Positions 1 through 30,100 are shown, counted from the first letter of the stretch. The stretch is DNA of 64,000 nt from an uncultured virus (IMG/VR IMGVR_UViG_3300042691_011955) (IMGVR_UViG_3300042691_011955); one strand, 5' to 3'. Notes: generated by a model not told the origin, from the sequence alone. Made by a program: numbers and translations.

Positions 1-76
1 CGAAAAGGCTTATGAAAAGGAAGACGAAGCTATGATGATTCGTCTAATTAAAATCCGTCAATCACTTTGGACATGA
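1..76 (+). CDS. 3' end of hypothetical phage protein (truncated by window edge)
   Basis: Frame reads ...EKAYEKEDEAMMIRLIKIRQSLWT-stop; TGA overlaps the next ATG (ATGA). Confidence 0.6.
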   Translation, partial: EKAYEKEDEAMMIRLIKIRQSLWT

Positions 77-831
77 ATATGACATCAGTAACACAGCTTG
101 GACAGATACTAGCACAAATTAAACCAGCGCAATACACCTGGTTAGATGATTTTGAAGTTAAGACTGAAGATCAAGAAAAGACGTTTGATGCACCATTCGA
201 TGTGTTAGCCTCTATTATTTCTGCTATTGACGCAGACGCACCACTTTGGGAAATTGGAGAAGCTTGGAAATCTCTTAAGTATTCGAAAGGATTCGATGGC
301 CTAAAGGTAACTGCTCCTAACGATTTTCAAATTCAGCGAGCAAATCAGATTCGCAAGTATTACAGGAATAAACTTACTATTCTAGCATTGAAGTCGCAGA
401 GTATGAGTAACTTTAGAGTAGATCTGCAAGAGCTGTTAAGCATGGATCCAACAAAATTAAAATTAAAGTTTTTGCCTATGATGATTCGCTTGCCTTCTTT
501 TTATAAAGAAGATACTATAATAGATAATCTAAAGAAAACTACAGTAGTGCCCATGCATAATCGTGCTCGACCCGAAAAGGAATCTAGGACATTGACATTT
601 GTAGATAAGATTCATCGCAAAACTAAAAATCAAGATCTAAATTGGTACTGGTTTGTAAATGAACAAAATGTACTGCATCGTTTGAGCGTAGACGGCAAAA
701 ACAAACTAAGTCATATTCTTGAAAAGTTTCTAGATAAACCTGTAACCATTGAGGCAAATTATCCTGTTCAGACTGTGCGAGGAACTGATCTTAGTTTCTT
801 CAGTGTTGAAGGTGACTGGAAATTGTTATGA
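73..831 (+). CDS. hypothetical protein
   Basis: Long ORF; ATG at 73 overlaps upstream stop. Confidence 0.7.
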   Translation: MNMTSVTQLGQILAQIKPAQYTWLDDFEVKTEDQEKTFDAPFDVLASIISAIDADAPLWEIGEAWKSLKYSKGFDGLKVTAPNDFQIQRANQIRKYYRNKLTILALKSQSMSNFRVDLQELLSMDPTKLKLKFLPMMIRLPSFYKEDTIIDNLKKTTVVPMHNRARPEKESRTLTFVDKIHRKTKNQDLNWYWFVNEQNVLHRLSVDGKNKLSHILEKFLDKPVTIEANYPVQTVRGTDLSFFSVEGDWKLL

Positions 832-1049
832 ATCGAGATGTAAGAACTCTAGTAGATCTTGCTATGGAAGTTGAAATGGAAGATCCTATTGACTGGGGCA
901 TGTTAGCTATTAGTGAACATGATGCTTATGAACTTATGGCTTCCCATGTACTTGAGATGAATAATGATAACTTGACAAACAAGGCTATTATTGTTAAACT
1001 ACTAGTAGAGAATTTTGTACTAAATCTCAAACTAATGGAATTAAGATAA
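828..1049 (+). CDS. hypothetical protein
   Basis: 73-aa ORF overlapping both neighbours. Confidence 0.65.
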   Translation: MNRDVRTLVDLAMEVEMEDPIDWGMLAISEHDAYELMASHVLEMNNDNLTNKAIIVKLLVENFVLNLKLMELR

Positions 1050-1291
1050 TGACAGTTAAAAAAACATACGCAGATACTGTTGATCTGCACTGCACGGATA
1101 AAAATGAAATAGTGCCAGCTGAAATCCTAGAATTTCGCCCAGGCATGCTTATTAGTGTAAGTATACAAAGAAAAATTAAAATGATACTTAAATTTAATCA
1201 TCGAGGCAATAACTATGTTGGCTCGATGGCAGGTCTTGAGTTTACTACTGCTGGCCCAAAAGAAACTATTACTTACGAAGGAAGAAGATAA
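1049..1291 (+). CDS. hypothetical protein
   Basis: 80-aa ORF with TAATG coupling at both ends. Confidence 0.65.
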
Positions 1292-1908
1292 TGCCACTAA
1301 TCCCAATGGTTGTTGAACAAGAGACTCGCGGCGAGCGTTCATATGATATTTACAGCCGCTTGCTCAAAGATCGAATTGTTATGCTCAACGGCCCTGTAGA
1401 AGATAATATGGCTAATGTAATTGTAGCACAGTTATTATTTTTAGAAGCAGAGAATCCAGACAAAGACATTAACCTATATATTAATTCGCCTGGCGGTGCA
1501 GTTACCGCAGGACTAGCTATCTACGACACAATGCAGTACATCAAATGTGATATTCGTACTATTGTCATGGGTCAGGCATGTTCAATGGGCTCGTTCCTAG
1601 CACAAGCAGGCACGGCAGGTAAGCGAGTAGTACTGCCTGAAAGCCGTACTATGATACATCGAGTTAGTTCAGGTACTCCTGGAACACGTGGTTCAGTTCA
1701 TGTACAAGAACTTCAATTTGAAGATGCTATTCGTTCAATGGAAGAAAGTAAAAAACTCAACAAGCGATTAACCGAGCTGTATGTCAAACACAACACCAAA
1801 GGCAAACAATACGATGAGCTTTTTGAAACAATGAAATTTGATACTTTCTTAAATGCACAAGAAGCGGTTGATTACGGTTTAGCAGATAAAGTTGTAGAGA
1901 AACGATAA
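1291..1908 (+). CDS. clpP: ATP-dependent Clp protease proteolytic subunit
   Basis: [39 protein letters not shown] (catalytic Ser), MIH (catalytic His). Confidence 0.97.
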
Positions 1909-2772: not shown

Positions 2773-2848
2773 TCCTCAGTAGCACAGCGGTAGTTGCACT
2801 TGACTGTTAATCAAGGTGTCCGTGGTTCGATCCCACGCTGAGGAGCCA
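2773..2848 (+). tRNA. tRNA-Asn(GTT)
   Basis: Cloverleaf, loop CT-GTT-AA, TTCGA T-loop, CCA. Confidence 0.95.
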
Positions 2849-2853
2849 ATTTA

Positions 2854-2943
2854 GGAGCGTGGGCCGGATGGTAAGGCAGCGGTTTGCTAAACCGTAGATC
2901 ACGTAAAAAGGGTCACAGGGTTCGACTCCCTGACGCTCCGCCA
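2854..2943 (+). tRNA. tRNA-Ser(GCT)
   Basis: Cloverleaf with long variable arm, TT-GCT-AA, GCCA end. Confidence 0.95.
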
Positions 2944-2951
2944 AATTAAAT

Positions 2952-3026
2952 GCACGATTCGTCTATCGGTTAGGACGCTGCCCTTTCAAGGCGGAAAGAC
3001 GAGTTCGATTCTCGTATCGTGTACCA
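2952..3026 (+). tRNA. tRNA-Glu(TTC)
   Basis: Cloverleaf, CT-TTC-AA, CCA. Confidence 0.95.
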
Positions 3027-3031
3027 AGTTT

Positions 3032-3276
3032 TTTAGTAAGTTGTTTAAGGTTACCTAGTCCGCTAGGGGTGAACGAAAAGGTGATTGCGTAGCAGAAATG
3101 CTCGGCCTTGATACCCATGAAGCAGGAGGGTTCTAGAGTATGACGAGACACCATCGAGTCAAAGGGCAAGAACTATTCCAAACTCCAGGAAGGCGGCGGA
3201 ACTACTAGGCCTGTAATGAGGTCTTGACGCAAGTTGGTGATGCGTGTCAAGAACTTCCTCAAACAATTTATTAAAG
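3032..3276 (+). ncRNA. unknown ~245-nt structured RNA
   Basis: Ends pair (TTTAGTAAGTTGTTTAAGG / CCTCAAACAATTTATTAAA); internal hairpins include AGCA-GAAA-TGCT and CCTAG/CTAGG. Confidence 0.6.
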
Positions 3277-3281
3277 ATTTT

Positions 3282-3358
3282 GCACCGTTAGCTCAGTTGG
3301 TTAGATCGCTTGCCTGTCACGCAAGAGGCCAGGGGTTCGAGTCCCCTACGGTGCGCCA
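3282..3358 (+). tRNA. tRNA-Asp(GTC)
   Basis: Cloverleaf, CT-GTC-AC, CCA. Confidence 0.95.
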
Positions 3359-3364
3359 TATTAG

Positions 3365-3392
3365 TTGACTTTGATTGTAAAGAGTGTACAAT
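3365..3392 (+). promoter_or_regulatory. internal sigma70-type promoter
   Basis: TTGACT-16-TACAAT. Confidence 0.5.
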
Positions 3393-3411
3393 TAAAATAT
3401 AGAAAGTTTTT

Positions 3412-3485
3412 GCCCTTATAGTTAAATGGTATAACGACGGTTTTGTAATCCGTAGTTTGCAGTTCGATTCTGTGTAGGGGCACCA
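3412..3485 (+). tRNA. tRNA-Thr(TGT)
   Basis: Cloverleaf, TT-TGT-AA, CCA. Confidence 0.93.
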
Positions 3486-3499
3486 AAGTGTTAGTTTTT

Positions 3500-3583
3500 G
3501 CCCCGGTGGTGTAATGGTAGCCACGCTGGTCTTAGAAGCCAGTGCCGCAAGGCGTGTCGGTTCGAGTCCGACCTGGGGCACCA
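3500..3583 (+). tRNA. tRNA-Leu(TAG)
   Basis: Cloverleaf with variable arm, CT-TAG-AA, CCA. Confidence 0.95.
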
Positions 3584-3593
3584 ATGTTAGTAA

Positions 3594-3667
3594 GCGGGAT
3601 TAGTTTAATGGTAAAACAGCAGATTTCCAATCTTCGGTCATCAGTTCGATTCTGATATCCCGCTCCA
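3594..3667 (+). tRNA. tRNA-Gly(TCC)
   Basis: GCGGG start, TT-TCC-AA, TCCA end. Confidence 0.93.
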
Positions 3668-3683
3668 ATTTTAAAAGGTAGAT

Positions 3684-3908
3684 ATGAAAGCAAAAACTTT
3701 AAGTCGTGGTCCAACTATTGATACTAATAAATGTGTTGAAAATGTTGGTGGTAGATTTGATCTAGTATTAATTGCTTCAGTTAGAGCTAGAGAAATAGCA
3801 AGGAAACACAGGAACGACGAAATGTCTACCCAAGTTAATGCGCCAGTTTCTGCACTGCTTGAAATTCAAGAAGGCAAAATTGGTAGAGAGTATCTAAGAA
3901 AAGTATAA
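3684..3908 (+). CDS. rpoZ: RNA polymerase omega subunit homologue
   Basis: VENVGGRFDLVLIASVRAREI...ALLEIQEGKI matches the omega core motifs. Confidence 0.88.
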   Translation: MKAKTLSRGPTIDTNKCVENVGGRFDLVLIASVRAREIARKHRNDEMSTQVNAPVSALLEIQEGKIGREYLRKV

Positions 3909-3909
3909 T

Positions 3910-3987
3910 CGGAGTGTGGCGCAGTCTGGCTAGCGCACCTGGTTTGGGACCAGGGGGTCCAAGGTTCGAATCCTTGTACTCCGACCA
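3910..3987 (+). tRNA. tRNA-Pro(TGG)
   Basis: CGG start, TT-TGG-GA, CCA. Confidence 0.95.
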
Positions 3988-3993
3988 TTTTTT

Positions 3994-4068
3994 GGGCTGT
4001 TAGTGATAATGGGAGCACGGGGCCTTTGCAAGGCTTAGGTCGGGGTTCGATCCCCCGACGGTCCACCA
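3994..4068 (+). tRNA. tRNA-Ala(TGC)
   Basis: G3:U70 pair, TT-TGC-AA, CCA. Confidence 0.95.
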
Positions 4069-4073
4069 AATAT

Positions 4074-4147
4074 GCGGGTATGATGTAATGGTAACCTGAA
4101 ACCTTGCCAAGGTTTATTCGCGAGTTCGATTCTCGCTACCCGCTCCA
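4074..4147 (+). tRNA. tRNA-Gly(GCC)
   Basis: GCGGG start, TT-GCC-AA, TCCA end. Confidence 0.93.
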
Positions 4148-4176
4148 AATGTTTTAGAAATATTTTTAAAAAGATG

Positions 4177-4205
4177 TTGACAAGACAGTAAAAATTTGCT
4201 AAAAT
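4177..4205 (+). promoter_or_regulatory. sigma70 promoter for the large ncRNA
   Basis: TTGACA-17-TAAAAT with TGn extension. Confidence 0.75.
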
Positions 4206-4212
4206 AGACACA

Positions 4213-5105
4213 TGTTAAGAATTTAAGGGTGGTTTATCATCCTGTAGGCGGCTTGCCGTTTACAAAGAATAAGTGTGGCGACACACCCAAAGCTAGAATG
4301 CCTACATACTAGCGCCAGCAATGGTTCACGTAAACAAGCCTGCTCACTACCGCGAGGTAGCGTTCACTCATAAGACCGGTGGATGTAACAGCAAAGCTGA
4401 TGTATGGGAAAGAACATTGTTCGACGTGCCGCAAGGAACACGGGGCAGTGAAAAGTAACAGGTGGTGCTGACTTCCATATAAAACCAATCAGTTAGTTGG
4501 TATGAGAAAGGGTAGTGTACTTGTTCGAGGGGTCGCACCTAAGAGCTCGTATACAATGTAAATGGTTAGTGGGCTGTAGTAATACAGTACACCGATCGTG
4601 AAACATCACTGAGTAGCTCGCGAGGCAAAAGGTATGTGGTGAGTTGTATTTTGTATTCCAAAAGAGTATGAAGCAACTGAGGCAGCTCATCGCGGTAGGT
4701 TAATGTAGATCAATGGTAGATCATCTTCCTGTTAAGAAGAATGCTGTCGGTTCAAATCCGATCATTTAAACAAAAATGCAAAGACTGCCTCGGTCGTATG
4801 TGAAAAGTATCTAATACTTGAGTGGTAACACAATCAAGTCTAATGAAGCTCGCAAGGTAACATTAGTTTATACTGGAAGTTTCGTAGGGTGTTAGCGCAC
4901 TCGAATAGCTCGCAAGGTTAACGGAATAGATGGTGTAGAATAGCATATGGCGTCAAGTCTACTGCCTGACTTAAAACGGCGATACTGTAAGCAGACTAGG
5001 TTACATAGTGATATGGACTTAGTGGATGTCTAGAGAACGTATACTCGCAAGGTGTACGGTAATGCTAGAGGTGCTTATGGTTAAGATGTAATCTCAGTCT
5101 TAACA
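4213..5105 (+). ncRNA. giant structured ncRNA, GOLLD-like
   Basis: ~890 nt with no credible ORF, many GCAA/GCGA-tetraloop hairpins, tRNA-cluster context, embedded tRNA-like domain. Confidence 0.75.
4699..4770 (+). other. tRNA-Asn(GTT)-like domain inside the large ncRNA
   Basis: D arm GATC/GATC, anticodon arm TCTTC-CTGTTAA-GAAGA, T arm GTCGG-TTCAAAT-CCGAT; only 4-bp acceptor stem, no CCA. Confidence 0.75.
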
Positions 5106-5180
5106 CTATTCTAAAACACATTACCACAAACAGCAATTAGAGCTGGTTGTATAACAATGTCGTAGTGTGTTTCAGAATAG
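5106..5180 (+). ncRNA. long-stem-enclosed small RNA
   Basis: CTATTCTAAAACACATTAC pairs with GTAGTGTGTTTCAGAATAG; inner CAGC-AATTAGA-GCTG hairpin. Confidence 0.55.
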
Positions 5181-5188
5181 CAGAAATG

Positions 5189-5424
5189 TTATGCACATGA
5201 CAATTCGTTGTCAGCAAGAGAATGTCACGCTATAAAGGTTTCTTCGAAGGACTGATATAGTAGAAGGGGACGGGTTCAACTCCCGGCTGATCGGAAGATC
5301 GGCGCAGATTGGTTGCTAACTGGACTAGTATCCCAAGTGACGTACCGAGTCCCGCTCGAGCTTGTTAATTCGGGTGAATGGTGCTTATAACGATGGAAGT
5401 ACTAATGAGTTGTCAGCTGTATAA
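5189..5424 (+). ncRNA. unknown ~235-nt structured RNA
   Basis: Terminal helix TTATGCA..TGACAATTCGTT / AATGAGTTGTCA..TGTATAA; several internal hairpins. Confidence 0.6.
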
Positions 5425-5432
5425 TATTTTGA

Positions 5433-5511
5433 AGCGGAGTAGAGGAGTCCAGTCGTCCTCGCTAGTCTCATAAGCTAGAGATCGCAGGTGCGAATCCTGC
5501 CTCCGCAACCA
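5433..5511 (+). tRNA. tRNA-Met(CAT), initiator-like, atypical
   Basis: CT-CAT-AA loop, 1:72 mismatch, AACCA end; T-loop TGCGAAT. Confidence 0.85.
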
Positions 5512-5525
5512 GTTTTATTTTCAAA

Positions 5526-5615
5526 GGAAGCGTGGCAGAGCCCGGCTTATTGCGTTAGTCTTGAAAACTAAAGACTCGAAAGGGTCCGTGAGTTCGAATC
5601 TCACCGCTTCCGCCA
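5526..5615 (+). tRNA. tRNA-Ser(TGA)
   Basis: Long variable arm, CT-TGA-AA, GCCA end. Confidence 0.95.
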
Positions 5616-5630
5616 GACATTAAAAAATAC

Positions 5631-5659
5631 TTGACAAGTAGACACAAATCATATACAAT
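5631..5659 (+). promoter_or_regulatory. sigma70 promoter
   Basis: TTGACA-17-TACAAT. Confidence 0.75.
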
Positions 5660-5685
5660 TAACACATAGAGAAAAGGACACAAAC

Positions 5686-6258
5686 ATGGAACTTACACTT
5701 CGTAAAGCAAGCGCACTTCAGAACAGCATCAACGATACTGTTAAAAGTATCACGTTGACACAAACAATTCGCATCAACGAGTTCCAAGAGGCTGAAGCTG
5801 AAATATCTAAGGCTGCTCAGGAATTTAACAGCAATGTGTTTCGTCGTGTAGCACTGACAGATGTGCTGTACGAAATTCGCAAGGCAGTGAGCCGTGCAAA
5901 TGCACAAGCAGGTGTCAATGAAAAGTTGGCAGACTTGGCTCAGCTTGAGAAAGATATCCAATTCTTTTCAGGTCTAACAGCTCATGACGTTCGTGAGTCT
6001 GCTCAAGTCATTGAGGGCAAGTTGAATAAAATTCGGAACCGCAAAGAAGACACTCGTGCAAGTTTGTACGGCCACAGTGATGAAGTTAGTACTTCTGTAT
6101 TGACTCGCAAAGATGTAGATACATTCCGTGCAAAAGTAGCAGAAGCCAAAAAGGCCAAGCAGAAATTGCAGGACGAGCTCTTAGAGCTTAATGTTCGTAC
6201 AACTATTGCCCTAAGTGGTAAGGCTGTGGACATTCTTAAGCACGAAGAATTGATCTAA
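5686..6258 (+). CDS. helical/coiled-coil hypothetical protein (reminiscent of the DIP1984 family)
   Basis: 190 aa, AAGGA RBS, own promoter; family resemblance from memory only. Confidence 0.7.
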   Translation: MELTLRKASALQNSINDTVKSITLTQTIRINEFQEAEAEISKAAQEFNSNVFRRVALTDVLYEIRKAVSRANAQAGVNEKLADLAQLEKDIQFFSGLTAHDVRESAQVIEGKLNKIRNRKEDTRASLYGHSDEVSTSVLTRKDVDTFRAKVAEAKKAKQKLQDELLELNVRTTIALSGKAVDILKHEELI

Positions 6259-6261
6259 GGA

Positions 6262-6870
6262 AAACCCGGGCTCCCTTGCCCGTTATACACAGGGGGTGGG
6301 GCAGTCACCATAAAGAGTGCTAGGCGTGTAGTGCATTGGCCTTCCGATCCCGTGTAGGGAATCCGGGGACGCATTAGGTGAGGTTTAGCACCTTTCCAAA
6401 AGAATAAATGTTATGGACAGAGTAACCGCTCAGTCTAGGGCTCATGTGGTGTGAGTAGCTAGACACTTTATAAATGCTCTTTGAAGTTTAACTACACTTG
6501 AGAACACCAGTAGGTACTAAGTCGACTAACTGCTGAACGTGCAAGGAAGATACGGAGTTAAACAGTTTGGTTCGATTCCAACAGAGAGCACCTATAAGGT
6601 TTTGGTAGTATGCTGGTAACAGTAAACTACCCGGAAGAAGGCGAGAGATGAGGATGAACACCGTTATCGCTTCATGCGATGACTCCAATACTGGCAATCA
6701 GTCTTGAAAACTGATCGTGTTTGTATGCCCCGAATCTATCGAACTTGTGATTTGCTGTTCGGAAATACGCAAGCCACTGTGCTTTGCATATTGTAATTTG
6801 CTTAGGGCCTAGAGTAACCTCAGCCCGTTTGCACCTTGCACAGTTCATTACTTACTTGCTAACTTTCGTT
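6262..6870 (+). ncRNA. ~600-nt structured non-coding region with several modules
   Basis: No credible ORF; pseudoknot, hairpins, tRNA-like module, isolated anticodon loop, TTG-rich repeats, T-tract end. Confidence 0.55.
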
Positions 6871-6904
6871 TTTTTATAAGTAATCTTACAAAGGAGACAA
6901 ACTT

Positions 6905-7579
6905 ATGTATGCAACAGGTGTTTTTCGTTCTGCATCGCAGATTAATAGTGCAATGGGCCGTGTTTACGGACATATGGCACTGGCAGTTATCACATCAATG
7001 ATTGTAAGTTATCTTGTAGGATCAAATACAACGCTGATGGAATTTTTCTTTACAGGCGCAATGAAATGGCTTGTAATCTTTGCGCCGCTTGTAGCCATTC
7101 TTGGCGTTAGCTTTGCAATGGACAAAATGAGTAAGAGTGCGTTACAGCTATTTTTACATGGATTTGCCGCATTAATGGGTCTAAGTTTTGCTACAATCTT
7201 TGTAGTATATAACATGGGAAGCATTGTAAGCGCATTCATGGGAGCTGCCGTTCTATTTGCTACAATGAGTGGCTATGGCTACTTCACTAAACGTAATTTG
7301 GACGGAGTTGGCCAATTTATGTTCATTGGGTTGATTGCGATTGTTATTGCAAGTATAATCAATATTTTTATTGGTAGTACAGTTTTTCAAATGGTCATTA
7401 GTGCTATCGGAATTATTGTGTTCTTAGGCTTAACAGCATACGACACACAAAAGATTCGTGAGATGGTTAGTTACGACAATGATGGTAAGGCAGAAATTGC
7501 AGGCGCTCTTAGCTTGTACTTAGACTTTATCAACTTGTTCTTAATGTTACTACAACTATTTGGTGGTCGTAAGGACTAA
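6905..7579 (+). CDS. Bax inhibitor-1/YccA family membrane protein
   Basis: Multiple hydrophobic helices, LTAYDTQKI, ALSLYLDFINLFL. Confidence 0.95.
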   Translation: MYATGVFRSASQINSAMGRVYGHMALAVITSMIVSYLVGSNTTLMEFFFTGAMKWLVIFAPLVAILGVSFAMDKMSKSALQLFLHGFAALMGLSFATIFVVYNMGSIVSAFMGAAVLFATMSGYGYFTKRNLDGVGQFMFIGLIAIVIASIINIFIGSTVFQMVISAIGIIVFLGLTAYDTQKIREMVSYDNDGKAEIAGALSLYLDFINLFLMLLQLFGGRKD

Positions 7580-7586
7580 AGAATTT

Positions 7587-7661
7587 GCCTGGTTAGCTCA
7601 GGGGTAGAGCAACGCCTTTACACGGCGAAGGTCCGCGGTTCGAAACCGTGACCAGGTACCA
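7587..7661 (+). tRNA. tRNA-Val(TAC)
   Basis: Cloverleaf, TT-TAC-AC, CCA. Confidence 0.95.
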
Positions 7662-7731
7662 GAAATGTTTCCGTATTCAAGAGTGTGGCAAAAATACAAC
7701 AATATTTTTGTCACTTTTTAAAGAAAATCTC

Positions 7732-7760
7732 TTGACAGAGATAAATAAATACAGTATACT
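7732..7760 (+). promoter_or_regulatory. sigma70 promoter for leader 2 and tRNA cluster 2
   Basis: TTGACA-17-TATACT; spacer contains late-type ATAAATA. Confidence 0.8.
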
Positions 7761-7796
7761 ATACACATAGTAAGAAATTAACTAACAGAAAGAAAG

Positions 7797-7898
7797 ATGA
7801 TCAAAATGTTTAAGCAAATTAGAAAACATCAGATGTTTTGCATTCGCTGGTATCGACTACCAGGCGAGGGCCTTTCTGTAGGAGCAAGTTACGCATAA
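7797..7898 (+). CDS. putative attenuator leader peptide 2 (MIKMFKQIRKHQMFCIRWYRLPGEGLSVGASYA)
   Basis: First 20 codons use only, and all of, the 10 amino acids of tRNA cluster 2. Confidence 0.8.
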   Translation: MIKMFKQIRKHQMFCIRWYRLPGEGLSVGASYA

Positions 7899-7920
7899 CC
7901 AGTAACAGCTCAAAAAACAA

Positions 7921-7962
7921 AAAGACCCTCGGAATGTAAAATACTCCGGGGGTTTTTCTTTT
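7921..7962 (+). terminator. intrinsic terminator of attenuator 2
   Basis: AAAGACCCTCGGA...TCCGGGGGTTTTTCTTTT; its 5' arm can instead pair with 7865-7892. Confidence 0.85.
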
Positions 7963-8062
7963 AGTGCTATAGGAAACGAGATCCTGCTATCACTTTAAAC
8001 TAGCAAATGGGCGGCCTAGGGGATGAAGTCTGTGGCGACAACACAGATGTTAAAATCCTAGA

Positions 8063-8140
8063 GTAGTTAAGAACACTATAGGGACGACTGGACTCATAGC
8101 CCAGAACTTTGTAAAAGGCGTTATTAGTGTTCTTAACTAC
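8063..8140 (+). ncRNA. perfect 16-bp stem enclosing a CAT anticodon-like hairpin
   Basis: GTAGTTAAGAACACTA / TAGTGTTCTTAACTAC; inner CTGGA-CTCATAG-CCCAG. Confidence 0.55.
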
Positions 8141-8200
8141 ACACTCTTCATTCGCCCTGCGACGGCGTCTAAAAGCATAGCGGAGAGTGTCACTAAGTTT

Positions 8201-8287
8201 GGAGATGTAGGAAAATTGGTAACCCCAGTGGACTGTAAATCCGCCGCCCTTCGGGCACTACTGGTTCGACTCCAGTCATCTCCACCA
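8201..8287 (+). tRNA. tRNA-Tyr(GTA)
   Basis: CT-GTA-AA, variable arm, CCA. Confidence 0.95.
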
Positions 8288-8292
8288 AACAT

Positions 8293-8367
8293 AGCCGCGT
8301 AGCTCAGAGGAAGAGCACTCGCTTGATAAGCGATAGGTCGACATTTCGAAACTGTCCGTGGCTACCA
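8293..8367 (+). tRNA. tRNA-Ile(GAT)
   Basis: TT-GAT-AA, CCA; imperfect T stem. Confidence 0.88.
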
Positions 8368-8374
8368 AATTAAT

Positions 8375-8448
8375 GTATCTCTAATGTAATGGCAGCATCA
8401 CAGTCTCCAAAACTGTTCGTCGGGGTTCGAGTCCCTGGAGGTACGCCA
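8375..8448 (+). tRNA. tRNA-Trp(CCA)
   Basis: CT-CCA-AA, GCCA end. Confidence 0.94.
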
Positions 8449-8455
8449 AGTATAA

Positions 8456-8530
8456 CTCGCTTTAGTATAATGGATAATACAGTAGGCTTCTACCCTACGA
8501 ATATGGGTTCGATTCCTGTAGGCGAGGCCA
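8456..8530 (+). tRNA. tRNA-Arg(TCT)
   Basis: CT-TCT-AC, CCA. Confidence 0.94.
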
Positions 8531-8537
8531 GTAATAC

Positions 8538-8615
8538 GCACAGGTGGCAGAGAGGCCCAATGCAGTGGATTGCAAATCCGCAAAACCGTGAGTTCGAATC
8601 TCACCCTGTGCTCCA
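8538..8615 (+). tRNA. tRNA-Cys(GCA)
   Basis: TT-GCA-AA, U73 discriminator, CCA. Confidence 0.94.
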
Positions 8616-8737
8616 GTTACTGCAACAATCCGCTCGGGCTTCGTAGCGGAATGTAGTATTGAAGCCTATAAGTCCTGTGGAAGCAGGGGTCTAGATCCGT
8701 GTCCAAAGCGGTGTGGCTAACGAAGTGCCAAATTTAT

Positions 8738-8811
8738 TGGGGTATAGTGTAATGGTAGCACCACAGACTTTGACTCTGTTAGTCTAGGTTCGAACCCTAG
8801 TACCCCTGCCA
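8738..8811 (+). tRNA. tRNA-Gln(TTG)
   Basis: CT-TTG-AC, GCCA end. Confidence 0.94.
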
Positions 8812-8812
8812 T

Positions 8813-8888
8813 AGTGATGTAGCATAGCGGCTAATGTACCTCCTTCATACGGAGTTTATCGTCGGTTCGAGTCCGACCATCACTACCA
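8813..8888 (+). tRNA. tRNA-Met(CAT) elongator (or lysidine-modified Ile2)
   Basis: TT-CAT-AC, paired 1:72, CCA. Confidence 0.88.
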
Positions 8889-8906
8889 ACTTTAAAGGAG
8901 AAATAT

Positions 8907-9098
8907 ATGCCAACGATTAGATATCTTGATACTAGTATGTACGGATCGTATTTTGTCGACTGCGAAATATTAGAAAAAATAGACGAAGACACATTTAAGA
9001 TTAAATTCTATGATGACAATATAGATGAATATGAAATAAAGGTAGTTGAGCGTGATCGTCTTGAGTTTCCTAAGTTTAGTGATTACGCATCTTATTAA
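8907..9098 (+). CDS. small acidic hypothetical protein inside tRNA cluster 2
   Basis: AAGGAG RBS, 63 aa. Confidence 0.7.
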   Translation: MPTIRYLDTSMYGSYFVDCEILEKIDEDTFKIKFYDDNIDEYEIKVVERDRLEFPKFSDYASY

Positions 9099-9272
9099 GG
9101 AGAAAACAAAATGGGGCGATCGTAGTTTTACTTATGATAGTAGCTTTAATTTACTTTATTGACAAAAATTTAAAATAGGAGAATGACATGAAACGTTCAA
9201 GTAAACGTTAGTGTCAACCTTGACCCCGTATTGGTCCTGGTTGGCACATTAAATCAATTTAATTACGACCAA

Positions 9273-9348
9273 CCACTTGTAGCGTTAACGGTAGCGCACT
9301 TGACTCTTAATCAATGAGGTGTGAGTTCGAATCTCACCGGGTGGACCA
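9273..9348 (+). tRNA. tRNA-Lys(CTT)
   Basis: CT-CTT-AA, CCA. Confidence 0.9.
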
Positions 9349-9352
9349 ATAC

Positions 9353-9428
9353 GGGAGTATGGTGAAATGGTTATCACAGCAGACTTTTAATCTGCCAGTT
9401 CCGGGTTCGAGTCCCGGTGCTCCTACCA
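9353..9428 (+). tRNA. tRNA-Lys(TTT)
   Basis: CT-TTT-AA, CCA. Confidence 0.95.
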
Positions 9429-9558
9429 TAGATAAACACACTTTCAATCTGAATTGACAGATACAAACAACCAAGGGGAGCCTCTGGGTTCATCCAGTTT
9501 CATCCTGAATTGACAGGAACAAGGTTGTAAGGGGAGCCGAGTGTGTTTTTCTATGGTA
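9424..9558 (+). ncRNA. stem-enclosed RNA containing two 41-nt repeat units
   Basis: Outer 19-nt stem; units 9442-9482 and 9498-9538 with covarying hairpins. Confidence 0.7.
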
Positions 9559-9561
9559 ATA

Positions 9562-9636
9562 CGGCCCTTGGTGAAATGGATATCATTTCGGTCTTCGAAA
9601 CCGACGGTGGGAGTTCGATCCTCTCAGGGCCGGCCA
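9562..9636 (+). tRNA. tRNA-Arg(TCG)
   Basis: CT-TCG-AA, CCA. Confidence 0.93.
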
Positions 9637-9643
9637 AATATAT

Positions 9644-9718
9644 ACCCCTGTCGTTCAATGGATAGGATACCATGCTACGAACGTGGGGACGGTGGTTCGA
9701 TTCCATCCAGGGGTGCCA
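9644..9718 (+). tRNA. tRNA-Arg(ACG)
   Basis: CT-ACG-AA, CCA. Confidence 0.93.
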
Positions 9719-9724
9719 ATCAAT

Positions 9725-9798
9725 GGTGTTGTTAGTGTAGTGGTAACACGACTGTCTGTGAAACAGTAGACCAGGGTTCGATTCCCGACTTCACCCCA
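9725..9798 (+). tRNA. tRNA-His(GTG), imperfect stems
   Basis: G-1, CT-GTG-AA, C73, CCA; two U:U mismatches in the acceptor stem. Confidence 0.8.
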
Positions 9799-9802
9799 AA
9801 TT

Positions 9803-9924
9803 TGTAGTAACCAGCTAGGTGCTGTGTAAAAGGTGTTGCGGATAGTAGAGGTCTCATAGAGATAAGCTCGCTGTCGTTAAAGATCGTGACGCAAACTAAT
9901 TGAGTTTTGTCTCAACCTACTACA
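9803..9924 (+). ncRNA. stem-enclosed structured RNA
   Basis: TGTAGTA/TACTACA closing helix with internal hairpins. Confidence 0.45.
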
Positions 9925-9934
9925 TTTTATTTTT

Positions 9935-10010
9935 GCCGCTTTAGCTGATGTGGTCATAGCAACGGATTGAAAATCCGAGGAACCCTGTTCGATCCGGGGA
10001 GGCGGCACCA
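9935..10010 (+). tRNA. tRNA-Phe(GAA)
   Basis: TT-GAA-AA, CCA. Confidence 0.92.
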
Positions 10011-10034
10011 TTAACTGTGTATGATTTTATATTA

Positions 10035-10111
10035 TGGAGCGACCGGGGGATTCGAACCTCCGCTTCTTGGGTTACAGTCCCAAGTGTAGTGACCACTCTA
10101 CTACGAGTCGC
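10035..10111 (-). tRNA. atypical tRNA-like gene, identity unclear
   Basis: Reverse complement folds with D arm, 6-bp anticodon stem around ACTGTAA, TTCGAAT T-loop and TCCA end; bulged acceptor and T stems. Confidence 0.65.
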
Positions 10112-24108: not shown

Positions 24109-27100
24109 ATGGCAAGAAAAGAGATTAACATTGGCGTAGAAGGCAATGACGGCACAGGTGATAGTATCCGTGAGTCGTTTAGAAAGACCAACGAAAACTT
24201 TAATGAACTATATGCTATTTTTGGAGCAGGCGGTACTATTAGATTTACTACGCTAAGTGATACTCCTGACGGCTATGAACCTAATACTGTATTATTTGTT
24301 GATTCAAACGCTGACGGAATTAAATTTAGAGCCTTAGCTTCTAATTCAGCTGCTGATCCTACTGCCGACGATAGTATTTTAATTAGCTATGATACTCCTA
24401 ATAAAATTGTACTGTCAACATCTTTCAGAGCATTATCACAAGATTTATCACCGCAATTAGGCGGTCCTTTAGATGGAAGAAATAAAGCTATTGCTCGTAT
24501 AGCAATATCACAAGAAGCAGTTGACGAGTTTAACGCAGAACAACCTAATCCTCAAATAACCATTGACGATCTAGTTATTACCAAAGGTTACGCTGATAAT
24601 AGATATATTGCGGGTGCCTTACCAATTAGAATTCCAGACGAGCCTGCTAATGCAAGTGATTATACGTTGGTTATTGAATCTTATTCAAATGGTAATATTG
24701 TAGTTACTGGTCACGGATTTGACAATACCATTAACGGAACTCCTTACAAATTTCGAGCAGAAGATACTGATCCATCCGGAATAGTAACTGATACAACTTA
24801 TTATTTACGGTATGCTACAGCAAATCAATTAAGTGTACATGCTACCAGAGCCGATGCTACTGTTCTAAGTCAGTCCGATGCCAATACAAATAAGATATTC
24901 ATTACGGGTACTATTGGTGTAGATGATGAGCATATTTTTGTTGATGCTGCATACGACTCAAACTTACAAGGATTTTATCTAGCTAATCAAGCAATACCTA
25001 GAAAATCAGTAGTTCGCCGTCAGGGTGATAAGATGACTGGACCGTTGATACTGCATGACAGCCCAGGCGAACTTGCAGGGCTAGCCAGCAGCGATGAAGA
25101 TTTACAAGCAGCAACTAAATTTTATGTTGACAATACCAGTTATGCTAGTATCAGTAACTTATATGTAACTACGCAGGGCGACGATAGAATGACAGGAGTG
25201 CCAGCTGGTAAAGCAGGAACTTCTTGGAGTTATGCGTATAGAACTATTAACGCAGCAGCTCGGCGAGCTGAAGAAATTATTCAAGCATCTGAAGCTGAAC
25301 CCGGTCCGTACATGCAGACTATTACTCGAGACGGCGGCACAACACCAGCTGAAGTACTTGAAGCTGCCATTGTTACTCCTGTGTTTAATCAAGCAAGGTA
25401 TTTGATCGAACAAAATAGAGCGTTTGTTGTTAGTGAAGTTACAGGTTACTTACAATTTAAATATCCTAATTTTGATTATAATATTGAAACTTGCGAACGT
25501 GATCTAGGTTTGATTTTAGATTCTATTGCATTTGATATTAATAGAGGACCCGCAGTTGATGCTACAGCTAACTACCTAACAAGATTGGCTGCTGAAAGAT
25601 ATTATGCTAATGCAAGTGCTATTGTAGCAATTACAAGACAATTAACAGAAACTGTTGATGCTATTAATACTGCAAGAGATATGATTGCAGCAGTTCTGTT
25701 AAATCGTCCATATTTACAAAGACCAATATCAAATATTACACAAGCAGCTATAGCAAGAGTTACTACTAGCGTTTCACATAATCTAGTAAGCGGTAATCAG
25801 GTGATTATTAAAAATGTATCTGGTATGACACAGGTCAACGAGAACGTTTATTATGTAAGAGTAGTAAGCCCAAATCAATTTGAGTTATTCACTGATCGAA
25901 CACTATTAACCGCAGTAAATTCATTATCTTTTACAGCATATAGTTCGGGCGGTATAATTGGTATTAGATATCAAGACGACGAAGGTCAATTTTTTGATAT
26001 TGGTAATGATGCTGACGCAACATCAAGAACTGCTATCAGTGATAAGTTTAATTTAGTTACCAACATTATCCAGAACGGTATTAATGCTGGTGCATTAGTA
26101 GTATATGGTAGTACATACAAAGTTGTTGTTAATAACGGCGGTCTTAGTGCAATTGACCAAGGTGTAGGCAATAACGTAGACTTATTACCAGGAAAAATAC
26201 TAGTTGGTAAAATATCAGGCGCACAAGGACGTATTGTTAGCTTAACAACTAATGATCCAGCCGAAGGCGGCCAAGATAAAATTCTTGTGCATTTAATAAA
26301 GCCTATTGATTTTATACCAGGTGAAGATCTAGAGTTTGATAATTTTGTTAAACGCAAACAGATTACGATTTTTATTGAATCAGGTATTTATGAAGAAGAC
26401 TACCCTATTAAAGTTGCTGCCAACGTTTCAGTTGTGGGTGATGAATTTCGTCGCGTAATTATAAGACCAAATCGTCGAGTATCTCAATCACCTTGGGCAA
26501 GTACTTACTTCTACAGAGATTTAGAATTTGATGGTATACCGCTGGTTACAGGAGGTAATAGATTCTATAACCAAGTAGGCGAAATACAAGGTAGATTTGG
26601 ATATCATTACTTAGAAAATCCAACCAAAGTTAAAAACACAGGCACGTCTGTTGTAAACCCAGGAAAATTTTCAACAGCCTCAAACATTCTTCAAGAAAAT
26701 AAAAAGTTTATACAAGAAGAAGTAATTGCGTATATCAATCAAAACTTCCAAGATTTGCTCTACGACAAAATTCAGTTTGCTAGCGACTTTGGAGAAATAC
26801 TTGACGGCATTACCTATGACATAGTATTAGGTACAAATTACAATCAAGTACTAGAAGGATTAAAATTTTCTCGTGCAGGCAGTATATACAGAGATTCATA
26901 TCTAAGAGAACTTTGGGTAGATGCATTAATTAGAGCTAGAAATCTTGTTTCAGCATTACCAGCAGTTATTAGTAGTGCAACTGCAACTACTAGATCAAAC
27001 ACAGCGTTTAATGAAATAATTGATATTATTCAAAACGGTGTTGTTAGTACTGAGACTGCGGCAAATGCATTAACATTTAGTCCTATTGACAGTACCTTAC

Positions 27101-30100
27101 AAGATCAAATTGATGCAAAGAATCAATTGCAGGCAAATAGAAACTTCATTGCTGCTGAGATTACTGCATACATAGCTGTAAACTTTCCTAGGTTAGAATA
27201 CAATTCAACTAAGTGTGCAAGGGATGTTAAGTATATAGTTGATGCATTAAGCTATGATGTGATGTATGGAGGTAACTTTGCTACTAGACAATCTGCAATT
27301 AGTTACTTTGTTAATGCAGTAAGTCAGTTAGGATTAAATCAAAGATCTTTTACTGTTGATGCGTACGAGCATTTGTCAGGAGTAGTAGCAGACATAGTTC
27401 GTGGTATTGCTATAGTACCAACTTCAGGAAATGTATTGTCACAGACTGGCGTAGGATCTAACCCAGCTAGTACAACAGAATCAACAATAGTAACTAATTT
27501 AGTTAATATTATTAAAAATCAAATTAATAATAATAATTTGCTAACATTGCCTAGCGCCGTGTATCCTTCATTAACAAGTGCAAACGTAACCTTACTTGAT
27601 GTAAAAACTGCAATCAACGGCAGTACTAATACTATTGTTTCTGATGTAATCAGTACACTTGATGGTATTGCTGTATACTCATACAATCAGGCAAAGTGTC
27701 GTCGAGACGTTGGATTAATCGTTAATGCACTAGCAGATGATTTAAAGCTAGGCGGTGATGAGTTTTCTACAGAAGTACAAGGAGAATATTTTAGAAGCTA
27801 TATTCAAAAGTATAATAACGACGGATTTGGTGGACAAGAAAATGTTACCAAAGGCGCTATTAGATATATTTCAGAAATTGCTGCTAGACTATTTGACGGT
27901 GCATACGATGCCGGCGCTATCCAACAAAATCCTCTAGCTGTTAATTATGTTGCTCCTGACTTTGAATATGGAGTAGCAGAAAATGATACAGATAATATAA
28001 TAAGCAATTTAATTGAAAAGATTGTTTTTGTTTTTGATCCTAGATATAATCCTCCAAAACGAAATGACGAAGTAGATGTGTTTTTAATGAACGATGCTAC
28101 AATTTTACGTAACATGACAGTTCAGGGGCACGGCGGATTTATGTGTACTCTTGATCCAGACGGTCAAATATTAACTAAGTCACCTTACATACAGACAGGA
28201 TCTTCATTCTCACAAACATTAAATCGCAAACGTTTTGCTGGCGGTATGTTTGTTGATGCATATGTAGGTAACTTACCAGCTGAGATAACTGGAAAAATTA
28301 ATGCGTTTACTCTTACAATTCGCAGCGAAGAAACTCAAGGTCTAAGAATTCGACCACCCCAGTTACCATGTCCATTCTACATAGAAGGCAGACGCTATCA
28401 AGTTAATGCAATTTCTGATTATGACCAAGCACAAGGTACTGCAACTATCTATCTAGATGCTACATCTAACGCAGGTGTTGGATATCTAGAAAGTCAATTT
28501 GAAGAAGACACTGGACAAGTAGAACGTCCGTTATATTTACAAACTGCTGGTAATCGTTCGATGCTGGGCAATGACTTTACACAGATTAATGACCTTGGTT
28601 ACGGCTTAGTAACTAACAATGGCGCATTCTCTGAAATGGTGTCAATGTTTACCTATTATTGTCAAGCAGCCTACTATGCTAAGAACGGATCAGAAATTCG
28701 TTCACTAAACGGTTCTAACGGTTATGGTAACTTTGGTCTTGTGTCAGAAGGCGCAGATCCTAACGAAATTCCTGATCAGGTTACATTAGAATTTCCTATG
28801 ACTGCTCCAGCTAGAACGCTTCGATTCCCTCAAGGAGTTGACAATCTCGGTGCACCTACTAATTTTACAAACGTAGAAGCAGCAAATAGCATAGTAGTAA
28901 CAGATGTACCATATGCTCCACTAACTGGTTCTGTGGTTACAATTAATCACGGCGGTACAGTAGGAACCTTACAGTATAACGTTTCTGTTGTTAGGTATTT
29001 AGGAGACGGTAATCAATCTGGAGACGTAGTTCTAACAGGTATACAATCTGTTAGTTCTGTAGCTGGTAATGCTTCTAGAACTCCTGGAACATATACTGGC
29101 AAAGTAGGTACTGGTGGTACACCTACTGTACAAGCAACATATACTATAGTAATAGTGCCTGGCGGAGCAACTACAGTAACCGTTGAAGGCTGTGGTGAAG
29201 GATATGCTATTGGTAATACTATTACTATTGCTAATACACAGTTTGGAGGTACAGGAACTGCAATTACATTTACGGTTGCATCAATTTACGGCAACGACGG
29301 TGTAACAGCATTACCTGCTAGTGTATATAATAATAAGGTATATAGATTACAAATAAGCGGACAACCTAACGGTACTAACGGAGATTTCTACTCAGCAATT
29401 AAGGCTGATGTAGCCAACGGAGTACTAGTTGAATATCGTAACGGCGGAACTCATATATTTGACAGCGTTAAGGATACTTCAAGATTAGTTACTAGACCAA
29501 GTACAGCTATTAACTTTGACGAGAGTGACAATGTTACTTACAGAAGTATTGGTTTCAGTGCATTTAATTCACTAGGTTTACCTTTAGACAGTAATTCTAT
29601 TCAGACAACTTTTGAAGTTAGTTACGATCATATTGAGTTGTACGTTGAAGCAGCGAACGTTACCAGTACAACTGGTGGAACTATTGGTAATACACAAATT
29701 AAAATTAATCCAGATAAAGAAGGATTCGGATTACTTGCAGATGAACTTGCAAGAATTACTAGAGACGTTGCTGGTAGATTGCCTGGAGCTCCAGGCTATA
29801 GTGGTGGTATGGTGTTTACATGGGCAGGTAGAACACATCAAATTATAAATTATACCCCAGTTGATACAGACGAAGCTATACTTACTATAAGCAGTACAAA
29901 CATACATAATCTTGCAGGCGCAGGCACAGGCATTGCTGAAGCGTTTACTACCGATAAAGTATTACGTGCTGGTTTGCCTGTAGGCAGTACTGCTGAGATA
30001 ACTATTGCTATTTCATTGTGCCGCGCTACAGGTCACGATTTTACACAAATTGGTACTGGTGGATTTAATACATCTAACTATCCTAATGTAATTTTAGGTG

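Follow-up and report, generated by a model that had tools for sequence, protein, structure and literature searches.

The stretch analysed here, referred to as the window, is a 64,000-nucleotide (nt) segment of an uncultured virus (IMG/VR IMGVR_UViG_3300042691_011955), with positions counted from its first letter. On its plus strand, 4213-5102 can with considerable confidence be read as encoding a GOLLD RNA, in an uncultured jumbo phage from fresh water; the transfer RNA (tRNA)-shaped linker of this RNA would be an inherited, integral module that is not matured or charged like the real tRNAs of the phage. The locus itself is an ordinary GOLLD member with an already known kind of insert: it is one more gene of a family whose structure has been solved, and a tRNA in the linker is a known feature because such tRNAs have already been published (PMC12286853, PMC12990946, PMC6582537). 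What is modestly new is that the embedded modules lack CCA, have weak A/U-rich acceptors and ill-fitting discriminators, resemble one another and change anticodons between orthologues. A systematic comparison of embedded and free tRNAs was not found in the GOLLD literature searched, of which subscription papers and supplements could contain one.

The family call, originally made by resemblance, is upheld by the Rfam GOLLD model (RF02032), which matches 4636-5100 on the plus strand with 201 bits, the gathering score being 150 (expectation value, E, of 3e-55); the match is not truncated and spans model positions 1-416, i.e., the whole model. It is the sole non-tRNA match in a scan of the whole window with Rfam 15. 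The score has its source in the paired 3' domain, with the linker columns at low posterior probability, so that it is no artefact of tRNA or low-complexity sequence. The initial annotation had also proposed running the model of ROOL (RF03087), and this has no match in the window at its gathering threshold, nor in 4150-5450 at E up to 5. Likewise, the description of the region as ~890 nt of non-coding sequence stands, as the longest open reading frame (ORF) overlapping 4100-5500 is one of 65 amino acids on the minus strand.

Since a blastn search of 4150-5450 found no match among GenBank phages, relatives were taken from IMG/VR contigs. A two-motif GOLLD pattern fetched 36 viral contig loci, 28 of which pass the GOLLD cut-off, and these were searched with 4101-5450 by blastn. 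The homologues thus obtained are 78.6% identical over 4214-5122 (L015/L024), 76% over 4214-5124 (L019), 75% over 4212-5122 (L004/L016), 72.5% over 4286-5101 (L017/L023/L028) and 69.5% over 4266-5097 (L013), while a later fetch added the closest relative, L039, with 87% identity over 4215-5122. The full-length homologues show sharp common ends: homology starts at 4212-4215, the conserved RNA extends to ~5102, and conservation of sequence continues to 5122-5124. Nine sequences, namely the window together with L015, L019, L004, L017, L028, L013, L030 and L027, make up the alignment A1, against which the parts of the RNA may be listed as follows.

4213..5102, plus strand: GOLLD RNA, ~890 nt, delimited by the Rfam 3' match, full-length relatives 69-87% identical, covariation and RNA contigs
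4213..4635, plus strand: lineage-specific 5' domain, 423 nt, outside the Rfam model and aligning with all eight A1 relatives
4636..5100, plus strand: conserved GOLLD 3' domain, Rfam model positions 1-416
4636..4693, plus strand: first hairpin of the Rfam model (model positions 1-62), directly before the linker, with compensatory changes
4695..4701, plus strand: GUAGGUU, of which UAGGUU is invariant in 9/9 A1 GOLLDs; predicted partner AGCCUGC at 4337-4343
4699..4770, plus strand: tRNA-shaped domain occupying the variable linker, which is unpaired in the GOLLD model; 57.4 bits with Rfam tRNA (cut-off 29) and ARAGORN tRNA-Asn(GTT)
4793..4951, plus strand: long-range helix 4793-4801/4943-4951, the square-bracket helix of the Rfam model
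5082..5102, plus strand: terminal hairpin UAAGAU-GUAAUCUCA-GUCUUA (5082-5087/5097-5102), with the loop GUAAUCUCAG invariant in the family

The architecture is thus that of a GOLLD, with a large, less-conserved 5' domain, a variable linker and a total of ~800 nt or more. For A1, RNAalifold predicts 231 pairs, and when these are tested on the same alignment, 137 are changed on both sides as against 76 in shuffles, and 95.6% of cells pair as against 77.5% in shuffles (0/500 shuffles reach either value) and 37-42% with slid partners. In the 5' domain, 17 of the 19 helices (1-19) carry compensatory changes. The two without them are helix 2, the predicted closing helix 4266-4269/5109-5112, in which no pair is changed on both sides, and helix 6, the predicted pairing of AGCCUGC (4337-4343) with GUAGGUU (4695-4701), in which 5 of 7 pairs are invariant and none is changed on both sides. 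The helices of the 3' domain (20-40) are backed by compensatory change, including the long-range helix (helix 26, with 6 of 9 pairs changed on both sides) and the terminal hairpin (helix 40, 5 of 6).

Evidence for an RNA of this extent comes from the environment. Twenty public runs, labelled as freshwater, lake-water and fungus metagenomes, contain the DNA of the window or a part of it, and six of these are freshwater metatranscriptomes; RNA contigs were examined from four of the six (X15-X18), which belong to three studies, X15 and X16 being from one. With 0 differences, X15 provides contigs at 4224-4368, 4339-4519, 4490-4983 and 4954-5096, X16 at 4265-4672, 4643-4841 and 4812-5097, X17 contigs that cover 4234-4519 and 4490-5021, and X18 contigs that cover 4238-4918, including one at 4481-4918. 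The border between the 5' and 3' domains at 4636 is bridged in all four (X16 4265-4672, X15 4490-4983, X17 4490-5021, X18 4481-4918), and the tRNA-shaped domain is bridged whole, with over 31 flanking bases at both borders, in 4/4 runs (X15 4490-4983, X16 4643-4841, X17 4490-5021, X18 4481-4918). Uncut RNA of the window's sequence is therefore present in lake RNA libraries, carried-over DNA being the less likely source. These contigs cannot give RNA ends or levels; none from the four runs lies on 4000-4215, 5098-5206 or 5404-5600, which is uninformative on absence, RNA ends and flanking tRNAs, and as the contig ends at 5096 and 5097 (X15 and X16) come from one study, no 3' end is drawn from them. 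One low-depth contig of X17 has two joints (4392>4498 and 4519>4608), with 4-8 differences per piece, and looks like a variant of a relative.

Turning to the linker, the cloverleaf with D, anticodon (GTT) and T arms that the initial annotation had placed at 4699-4770 is recovered by both Rfam tRNA and ARAGORN, with a D stem at 4708-4711/4719-4722, an anticodon stem at 4724-4728/4736-4740 bearing the loop CUGUUAA (GTT), and a T stem at 4746-4750/4758-4762. Its acceptor stem, described there as eroded, indeed has 5 of 7 pairs, with the non-standard oppositions G.A at 1-72 and U.U at 3-70, and the 3' end reads A-CAA, with A as the discriminator and no CCA. The first three of its 'acceptor' bases lie within the UAGGUU hexamer that is invariant in the 9/9 A1 sequences. 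Covariation in A1 extends to the embedded D, anticodon and T stems (helices 22-24), and the module aligns column for column in the 9 orthologous GOLLDs, in which the anticodon is GTT, TTT, GAT or TCT. In the closest relative, L039, the embedded anticodon is ATT, and the embedded modules of two relatives have anticodon loops of 6 or 8 bases. The embedded anticodons found in relatives (GTT, TTT, TTG, TCT, TAG, TAT) all read A/U-rich codons.

The clearest contrast is seen when such modules are set beside the free tRNAs around them. In a first set, comprising the window and the 36 loci, 20 of the tRNAs called by ARAGORN are embedded in GOLLDs and 129 are free, which amounts to 16 and 104 distinct sequences, respectively. 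Counted over distinct sequences, an encoded CCA is present in 0/16 embedded modules and 82/104 free tRNAs, all seven acceptor pairs in 4/16 and 91/104, and a G at position 1 in 4/16 and 66/104, and the acceptor stems have a G+C content of 28% and 65%, respectively. The fourth base of the T loop is A in 12/16 embedded modules versus G in 96/104 free tRNAs. For 10 of the 16 embedded modules the nearest core is that of another embedded module, whatever the anticodon, with embedded cores being only 15 of the 119 candidates. A second set, drawn from GOLLDs on contigs that carry a neighbouring structured RNA (5209-5404 in the window, see below), adds 4 distinct embedded modules and 74 distinct free tRNAs not present in the first; here CCA occurs in 0/4 versus 74/74, and the full acceptor stem in 0/4 versus 70/74. 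Both sets together give CCA in 0/20 distinct embedded modules versus 156/178 distinct free neighbours. The discriminator follows the same division, with G73 in 4/4 distinct free tRNA-Asn and A73 in 5/5 distinct embedded Asn-like modules; bacterial Asn identity resides in the anticodon and G73 (PMC9976931). Of the features expected of a functional tRNA-Asn, then, the domain at 4699-4770 has the recognisable cloverleaf and lacks both the seven-pair acceptor with CCA and G73.

Taken together, these patterns suggest that the embedded modules are a lineage of their own, inherited with the GOLLD. That the tRNA-shaped domain is an inherited part of the GOLLD RNA, which is not matured like the neighbouring tRNAs, appears probable from such comparisons. 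An uncharged module is proposed because there is no CCA, the acceptor end is weak and mismatched, and A73 stands where free tRNA-Asn have G73; the suggestion of the initial annotation that the domain cannot be charged would fit both the embedded modules of relatives and the uncut RNA contigs, while the decoy role that it attached to the domain is speculation.

Several points weigh against this interpretation. The Fisher p-values for the embedded-versus-free contrast (7e-10 and 6e-7) overstate independence, as both tRNA sets contain related sequences, and the A1 structure, having been tested on its own source alignment, is flattered by that test. Features of working tRNAs persist in the modules: U33 occurs in 14/14 of the embedded anticodon loops of seven bases and a purine at 37 in 13/14, the D- and T-loop motifs of the elbow are conserved, and the codons read by the embedded anticodons are A/U-rich, which is common among phage tRNAs. 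After cleavage, CCA could be added by a host CCA-adding enzyme, and the 4/16 modules with full acceptor stems could be substrates of ribonuclease P (RNase P). Formally, the RNA libraries could contain carried-over DNA, and the contigs are blind to an excised, tRNA-sized form, since short modified RNAs are poorly captured. Finally, the cage, its copy number and the inward-pointing linker that figure in the proposed working of the RNA are carried over from two other GOLLDs solved by cryo-electron microscopy.

Two other accounts of the stretch need to be considered. The embedded cloverleaf might be the gene of a working tRNA-Asn, with the GOLLD as its precursor or store, from which RNase P and a 3' nuclease excise the tRNA, the host adding CCA, after which it decodes AAC/AAU; an 'inhibited storage' of GOLLD tRNAs has been put forward in a review (PMC12990946), and linker tRNAs are treated as phage tRNAs by published authors (PMC12286853). 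The 57.4 bits of the module do lie within the range of the free plus-strand tRNAs of this phage (47.7-67.2, Rfam tRNA), it has canonical D and T loops with U33 and A37, and the preference for A/U-rich codons among the embedded anticodons of relatives would be in keeping with decoding. Yet the phage already possesses a normal tRNA-Asn(GTT) at 2773-2848 with 7/7 acceptor pairs, G73 and CCA, whereas the embedded copy has G.A at 1-72, U.U at 3-70, A73 and no CCA, the last being absent from all 20 distinct embedded modules as against its presence in 156 of the 178 distinct neighbours. Moreover, the closest relative reads ATT at this place and two others have anticodon loops of 6 or 8 bases, RNA contigs cross both borders of the module in 4/4 runs, and the embedded pseudo-tRNA of Mycobacterium aubagnense gave no expression by Northern blot in the account of PMC6582537. 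A working tRNA-Asn is hence an unlikely explanation.

It would be far more surprising still if the stretch were two or more RNAs lying side by side in a tRNA operon, i.e., a 5' RNA, a tRNA and a 3' GOLLD core. In its favour, the Rfam model covers 4636-5100 only. However, the 5' part is conserved jointly with the 3' part in the eight A1 relatives and in L039, the ends being sharp and shared; contigs of four runs bridge 4636; and the published GOLLD architecture consists of the same two domains with a 5' region of ~420 nt (PMC12286853). A single GOLLD RNA with an integral tRNA-shaped linker is accordingly the reading retained here.

As to how such an RNA might work, the solved GOLLDs have separate 5' and 3' domains and self-assemble, free of protein, into a closed cage of 12-14 copies (Kretsch et al. 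2025; review PMC12990946), with the linker pointing into the cage (PMC12286853, PMC12990946). Extrapolation from the two solved homologues suggests that the RNA of the window would form a 5' cap domain and a 3' ring domain, and that 12-14 copies of it would build a closed, protein-free cage, in which the tRNA-shaped domain at 4699-4770 would be the linker pointing into the cavity. The module would keep the L-shape of a tRNA, its D, anticodon and T arms remaining under selection, with the anticodon drifting between orthologues. A further step, for which we would claim little likelihood, is that the module is a distinct, vertically inherited tRNA mimic, never cut out or charged, that acts as a multivalent bait or sponge for host factors that recognise anticodon loops or the shape of tRNAs. 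Each cage would then present 12-14 anticodon stem-loops, here of the Asn type and in relatives of the Lys, Gln, Arg, Leu and Ile types, to targets such as the anticodon nucleases of anti-phage defence, and the working tRNAs of the phage would be spared. Were this to be true, the frequent anticodon switches among close relatives would reflect an arms race and not the needs of decoding.

Irrespective of that proposal, the locus and its relatives provide a resource in the form of a clade of full-length freshwater-phage GOLLDs with environmental RNA evidence, and a clean natural comparison, which shows systematic differences between the linker 'tRNAs' and their free neighbours. This bears on the published question of whether GOLLD cages store real tRNAs for release or contain a tRNA-shaped structural or bait domain; the present data favour a structural or bait domain over stored real tRNAs.

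The flanks of the GOLLD contain three further elements.

4177..4205, plus strand: sigma-70-type promoter-like site, TTGACA (4177-4182), a 17-nt spacer, TG and TAAAAT (4200-4205), with 11/12 matches
5103..5186, plus strand: long hairpin directly 3' of the GOLLD, with conserved arms CACUAUUCUAAAACACAUU and AGUGUGUUUCAGAAUAG of ~19 nt and a variable loop
5209..5404, plus strand: second structured RNA of ~196 nt, between the GOLLD 3' hairpin and a tRNA-Met, with a capped tRNA-like core

The promoter that the initial annotation had assigned to the RNA can be kept in part. The TTGACA-17-TG-TAAAAT site ends, at 4205, seven bases before the start of homology (4212-4215), and the predicted start of transcription falls near 4212-4213; on the other hand, sites of this kind are no commoner in the 8-kilobase (kb) region than in shuffles (18 versus 15.5). 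Promoter-like hexamers are also found upstream of the GOLLD in L017 and L013. An own promoter is thus plausible for the GOLLD of this phage, though it would not be a rule of the family, because L015 and L019 carry a tRNA between the homologous upstream sequence and the GOLLD. A SAM-II match over the promoter (17.5 bits, E 2.7) and a mir-653 match over the 3' hairpin (17.2 bits, E 3.5) were both set aside as chance.

The arms of the 3' hairpin also occur in L015, L019 and L004, with loops of ~28 to ~100 nt. They are conserved in sequence and show no covariation. In L013, L030 and L027 a stem followed by a U-run takes the same position instead, and in L039 a hairpin with the similar arms AAAACACA/UGUGUUUU lies upstream of the GOLLD. 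The hairpin at 5103-5186 is likely a structure for processing or termination.

Two structural motifs of the initial annotation fared less well. The CGC(A/G)AG sequences behind its six tetraloop hairpins are exactly where it had put them, starting on the plus strand at 4351, 4430, 4619, 4851, 4911 and 5046 (6 in 893 nt; both strands of the full 64 kb have 39, and shuffles 27.5), but a tetraloop closed by C-G is not what covariation and the Rfam consensus indicate for those at 4851, 4911 and 5046. These point to 3-base-pair stems closed by U.G around a 5-nt CGCAA loop, and as the motif bases at the three sites never vary, the two pairing registers are indistinguishable. The suggested end-to-end pairing of TGTTAAGA (4213-4220) with TCTTAACA (5098-5105), which is perfect in the window (8/8), is not conserved in relatives: the eight of them retain 4, 4, 6, 2, 2, 3, 2 and 2 of the 8 pairs, and 61.1% of cells pair as against 60.1% in shuffles, 253/500 of which reach the observed value. 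Furthermore, five bases of TCTTAACA are shared with the covarying terminal hairpin (CG:5/GC:4 at one pair). With pairing at the level of shuffles, this helix was rejected as a coincidence of one sequence.

Of the objects in the window, the more novel may be its second structured RNA, at 5209-5404. RNA contigs with 0 differences exist for it in X15 (5223-5392) and X16 (5207-5361), and no Rfam family reaches E 10 over it except for a 15-nt match to a T-loop. Its homologues, which have sharp ends, were found at 40 viral loci (30 distinct) in large contigs of freshwater phages. In an alignment of the 30 sequences, 21 of 45 predicted pairs have a compensatory change, with the covarying elements being a terminal stem formed from both ends, a variable V-like hairpin, the T stem and the capped stem. 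The T-arm-like hairpin is ACGGGUUCAACUCCCGG, and the acceptor-like hairpin bears a GGAA cap and shows 15-18 double changes per pair; a D-like stretch is invariant in the 30 sequences, so that its predicted pairing lacks variation. The copies often stand 3' of an ...CCA and 5' of a tRNA, and this RNA therefore sits inside tRNA arrays. Of 35 records with this RNA, 13 also contain a GOLLD, which lies on one side or the other and never more than a few kb away. Between this RNA and the tRNA-Met (5433), an extended -10-like motif, TGTATAAT, was noted by eye on the plus strand at 5419-5426, seven bases before the tRNA, and it suggests a possible separate start for the downstream tRNAs.

The parent IMG/VR virus record is 98 kb long, with a CheckV completeness of 27%, and encodes ClpP, a ClpB-like ATPase, a clamp-loader subunit, an ATP-dependent DNA ligase, endonuclease VII and UvdE, genes as found in large phages; the source is an uncultured freshwater jumbo phage. 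The GOLLD lies in a tRNA island at 2773-10111 with 28 ARAGORN calls, 27 of them free and 1 embedded in the GOLLD; tRNA-Asn(GTT) is thereby represented twice, once free (2773-2848) and once embedded (4699-4770), and 26/27 of the free tRNAs have an encoded CCA. A virus record, tRNA neighbours and phage-type genes are the context expected of a GOLLD. One call in the island, a minus-strand tRNA-Thr at 10035-10111, is weak (Rfam 31 bits versus a cut-off of 29), and protein genes are interspersed in it, e.g., that of a Bax1-I family membrane protein at 6905-7579. Elsewhere on the plus strand of the window are two very large ORFs, one at 24109-33195 (3028 amino acids), with only a weak match to an E1_FCCH domain, and one at 57060-61598 (1512 amino acids), without a Pfam match at E 0.001.

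Around the GOLLDs of other contigs, a few unusual RNA genes were encountered. Directly downstream of that in L012 is a permuted transfer-messenger RNA (1040-1396, minus strand; Rfam 101 bits; ARAGORN tag ANASFAMAA), and ~1.2 kb upstream of one without an embedded tRNA, in L014, is a Pistol ribozyme match (49-118, plus strand; 52 bits versus a cut-off of 34.5). A tRNA with the amber-reading anticodon CTA lies near the GOLLD of L021 (2040-2114, plus strand), and a 100-nt ARAGORN call with a four-base anticodon (tacc) near that of L004/L016 (2860-2959, minus strand).

In relation to known systems, the window RNA is closest to the GOLLDs of RF02032, of which an env-38 14-mer and a Streptococcus agalactiae 12-mer have been solved (PMC12990946, PMC12286853). 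It shares with them the full-length match to the 3'-domain model, the two-domain layout with a 5' region of ~420 nt, a total of ~800-900 nt, many GNRA-type loops, the location within a tRNA island of a phage and the joining of the domains by a variable linker. It differs in its 5' domain, which has no detectable sequence similarity to most of the other GOLLDs fetched and is common, among these, only to one clade of freshwater phage contigs; the likeness to the two solved GOLLDs is one of published description. ROOL RNA (RF03087) is similarly a large, ornate phage RNA found near tRNA islands that forms an RNA-only cage (PMC12286853), but it is unrelated in sequence and fold, and the window is without a ROOL match. 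The mycobacterial GOLLD (PMC6582537) is alike in having a tRNA-like gene in its linker, there within a large tRNA array that moves horizontally. It embeds a pseudo-tRNA or a tRNA-Phe, and its authors saw the GOLLD RNA and no separate product of the pseudo-tRNA. It differs from the window in its host (Actinobacteria, as against a freshwater host) and its anticodon, and the present study goes on to trace the module across orthologues and to quantify it against free tRNAs.

A parallel might also be struck with the YrlA Y RNAs, tRNA mimics that are never charged (PMC4201824), in which a larger non-coding RNA likewise includes a module of tRNA shape, its T and D arms intact and its acceptor end non-functional. 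A loop caps the acceptor of YrlA, and the two ends of the RNA make up a Ro60-binding stem, whereas the GOLLD module is a normally connected cloverleaf, the open ends of which run into the GOLLD domains. The RNA at 5209-5404 has neither the match to a curated model nor the nearby Ro60 (TROVE) gene by which a YrlA RNA would be recognised, no match to such a gene being present either in the record to which the window belongs or in G001 and G002, two complete genomes of related phages that also carry the RNA. By published description, the predicted order of its elements resembles that of YrlA, with a variable arm, a T arm, a capped acceptor-like stem and a putative D arm within an enclosing end stem (PMC4201824).

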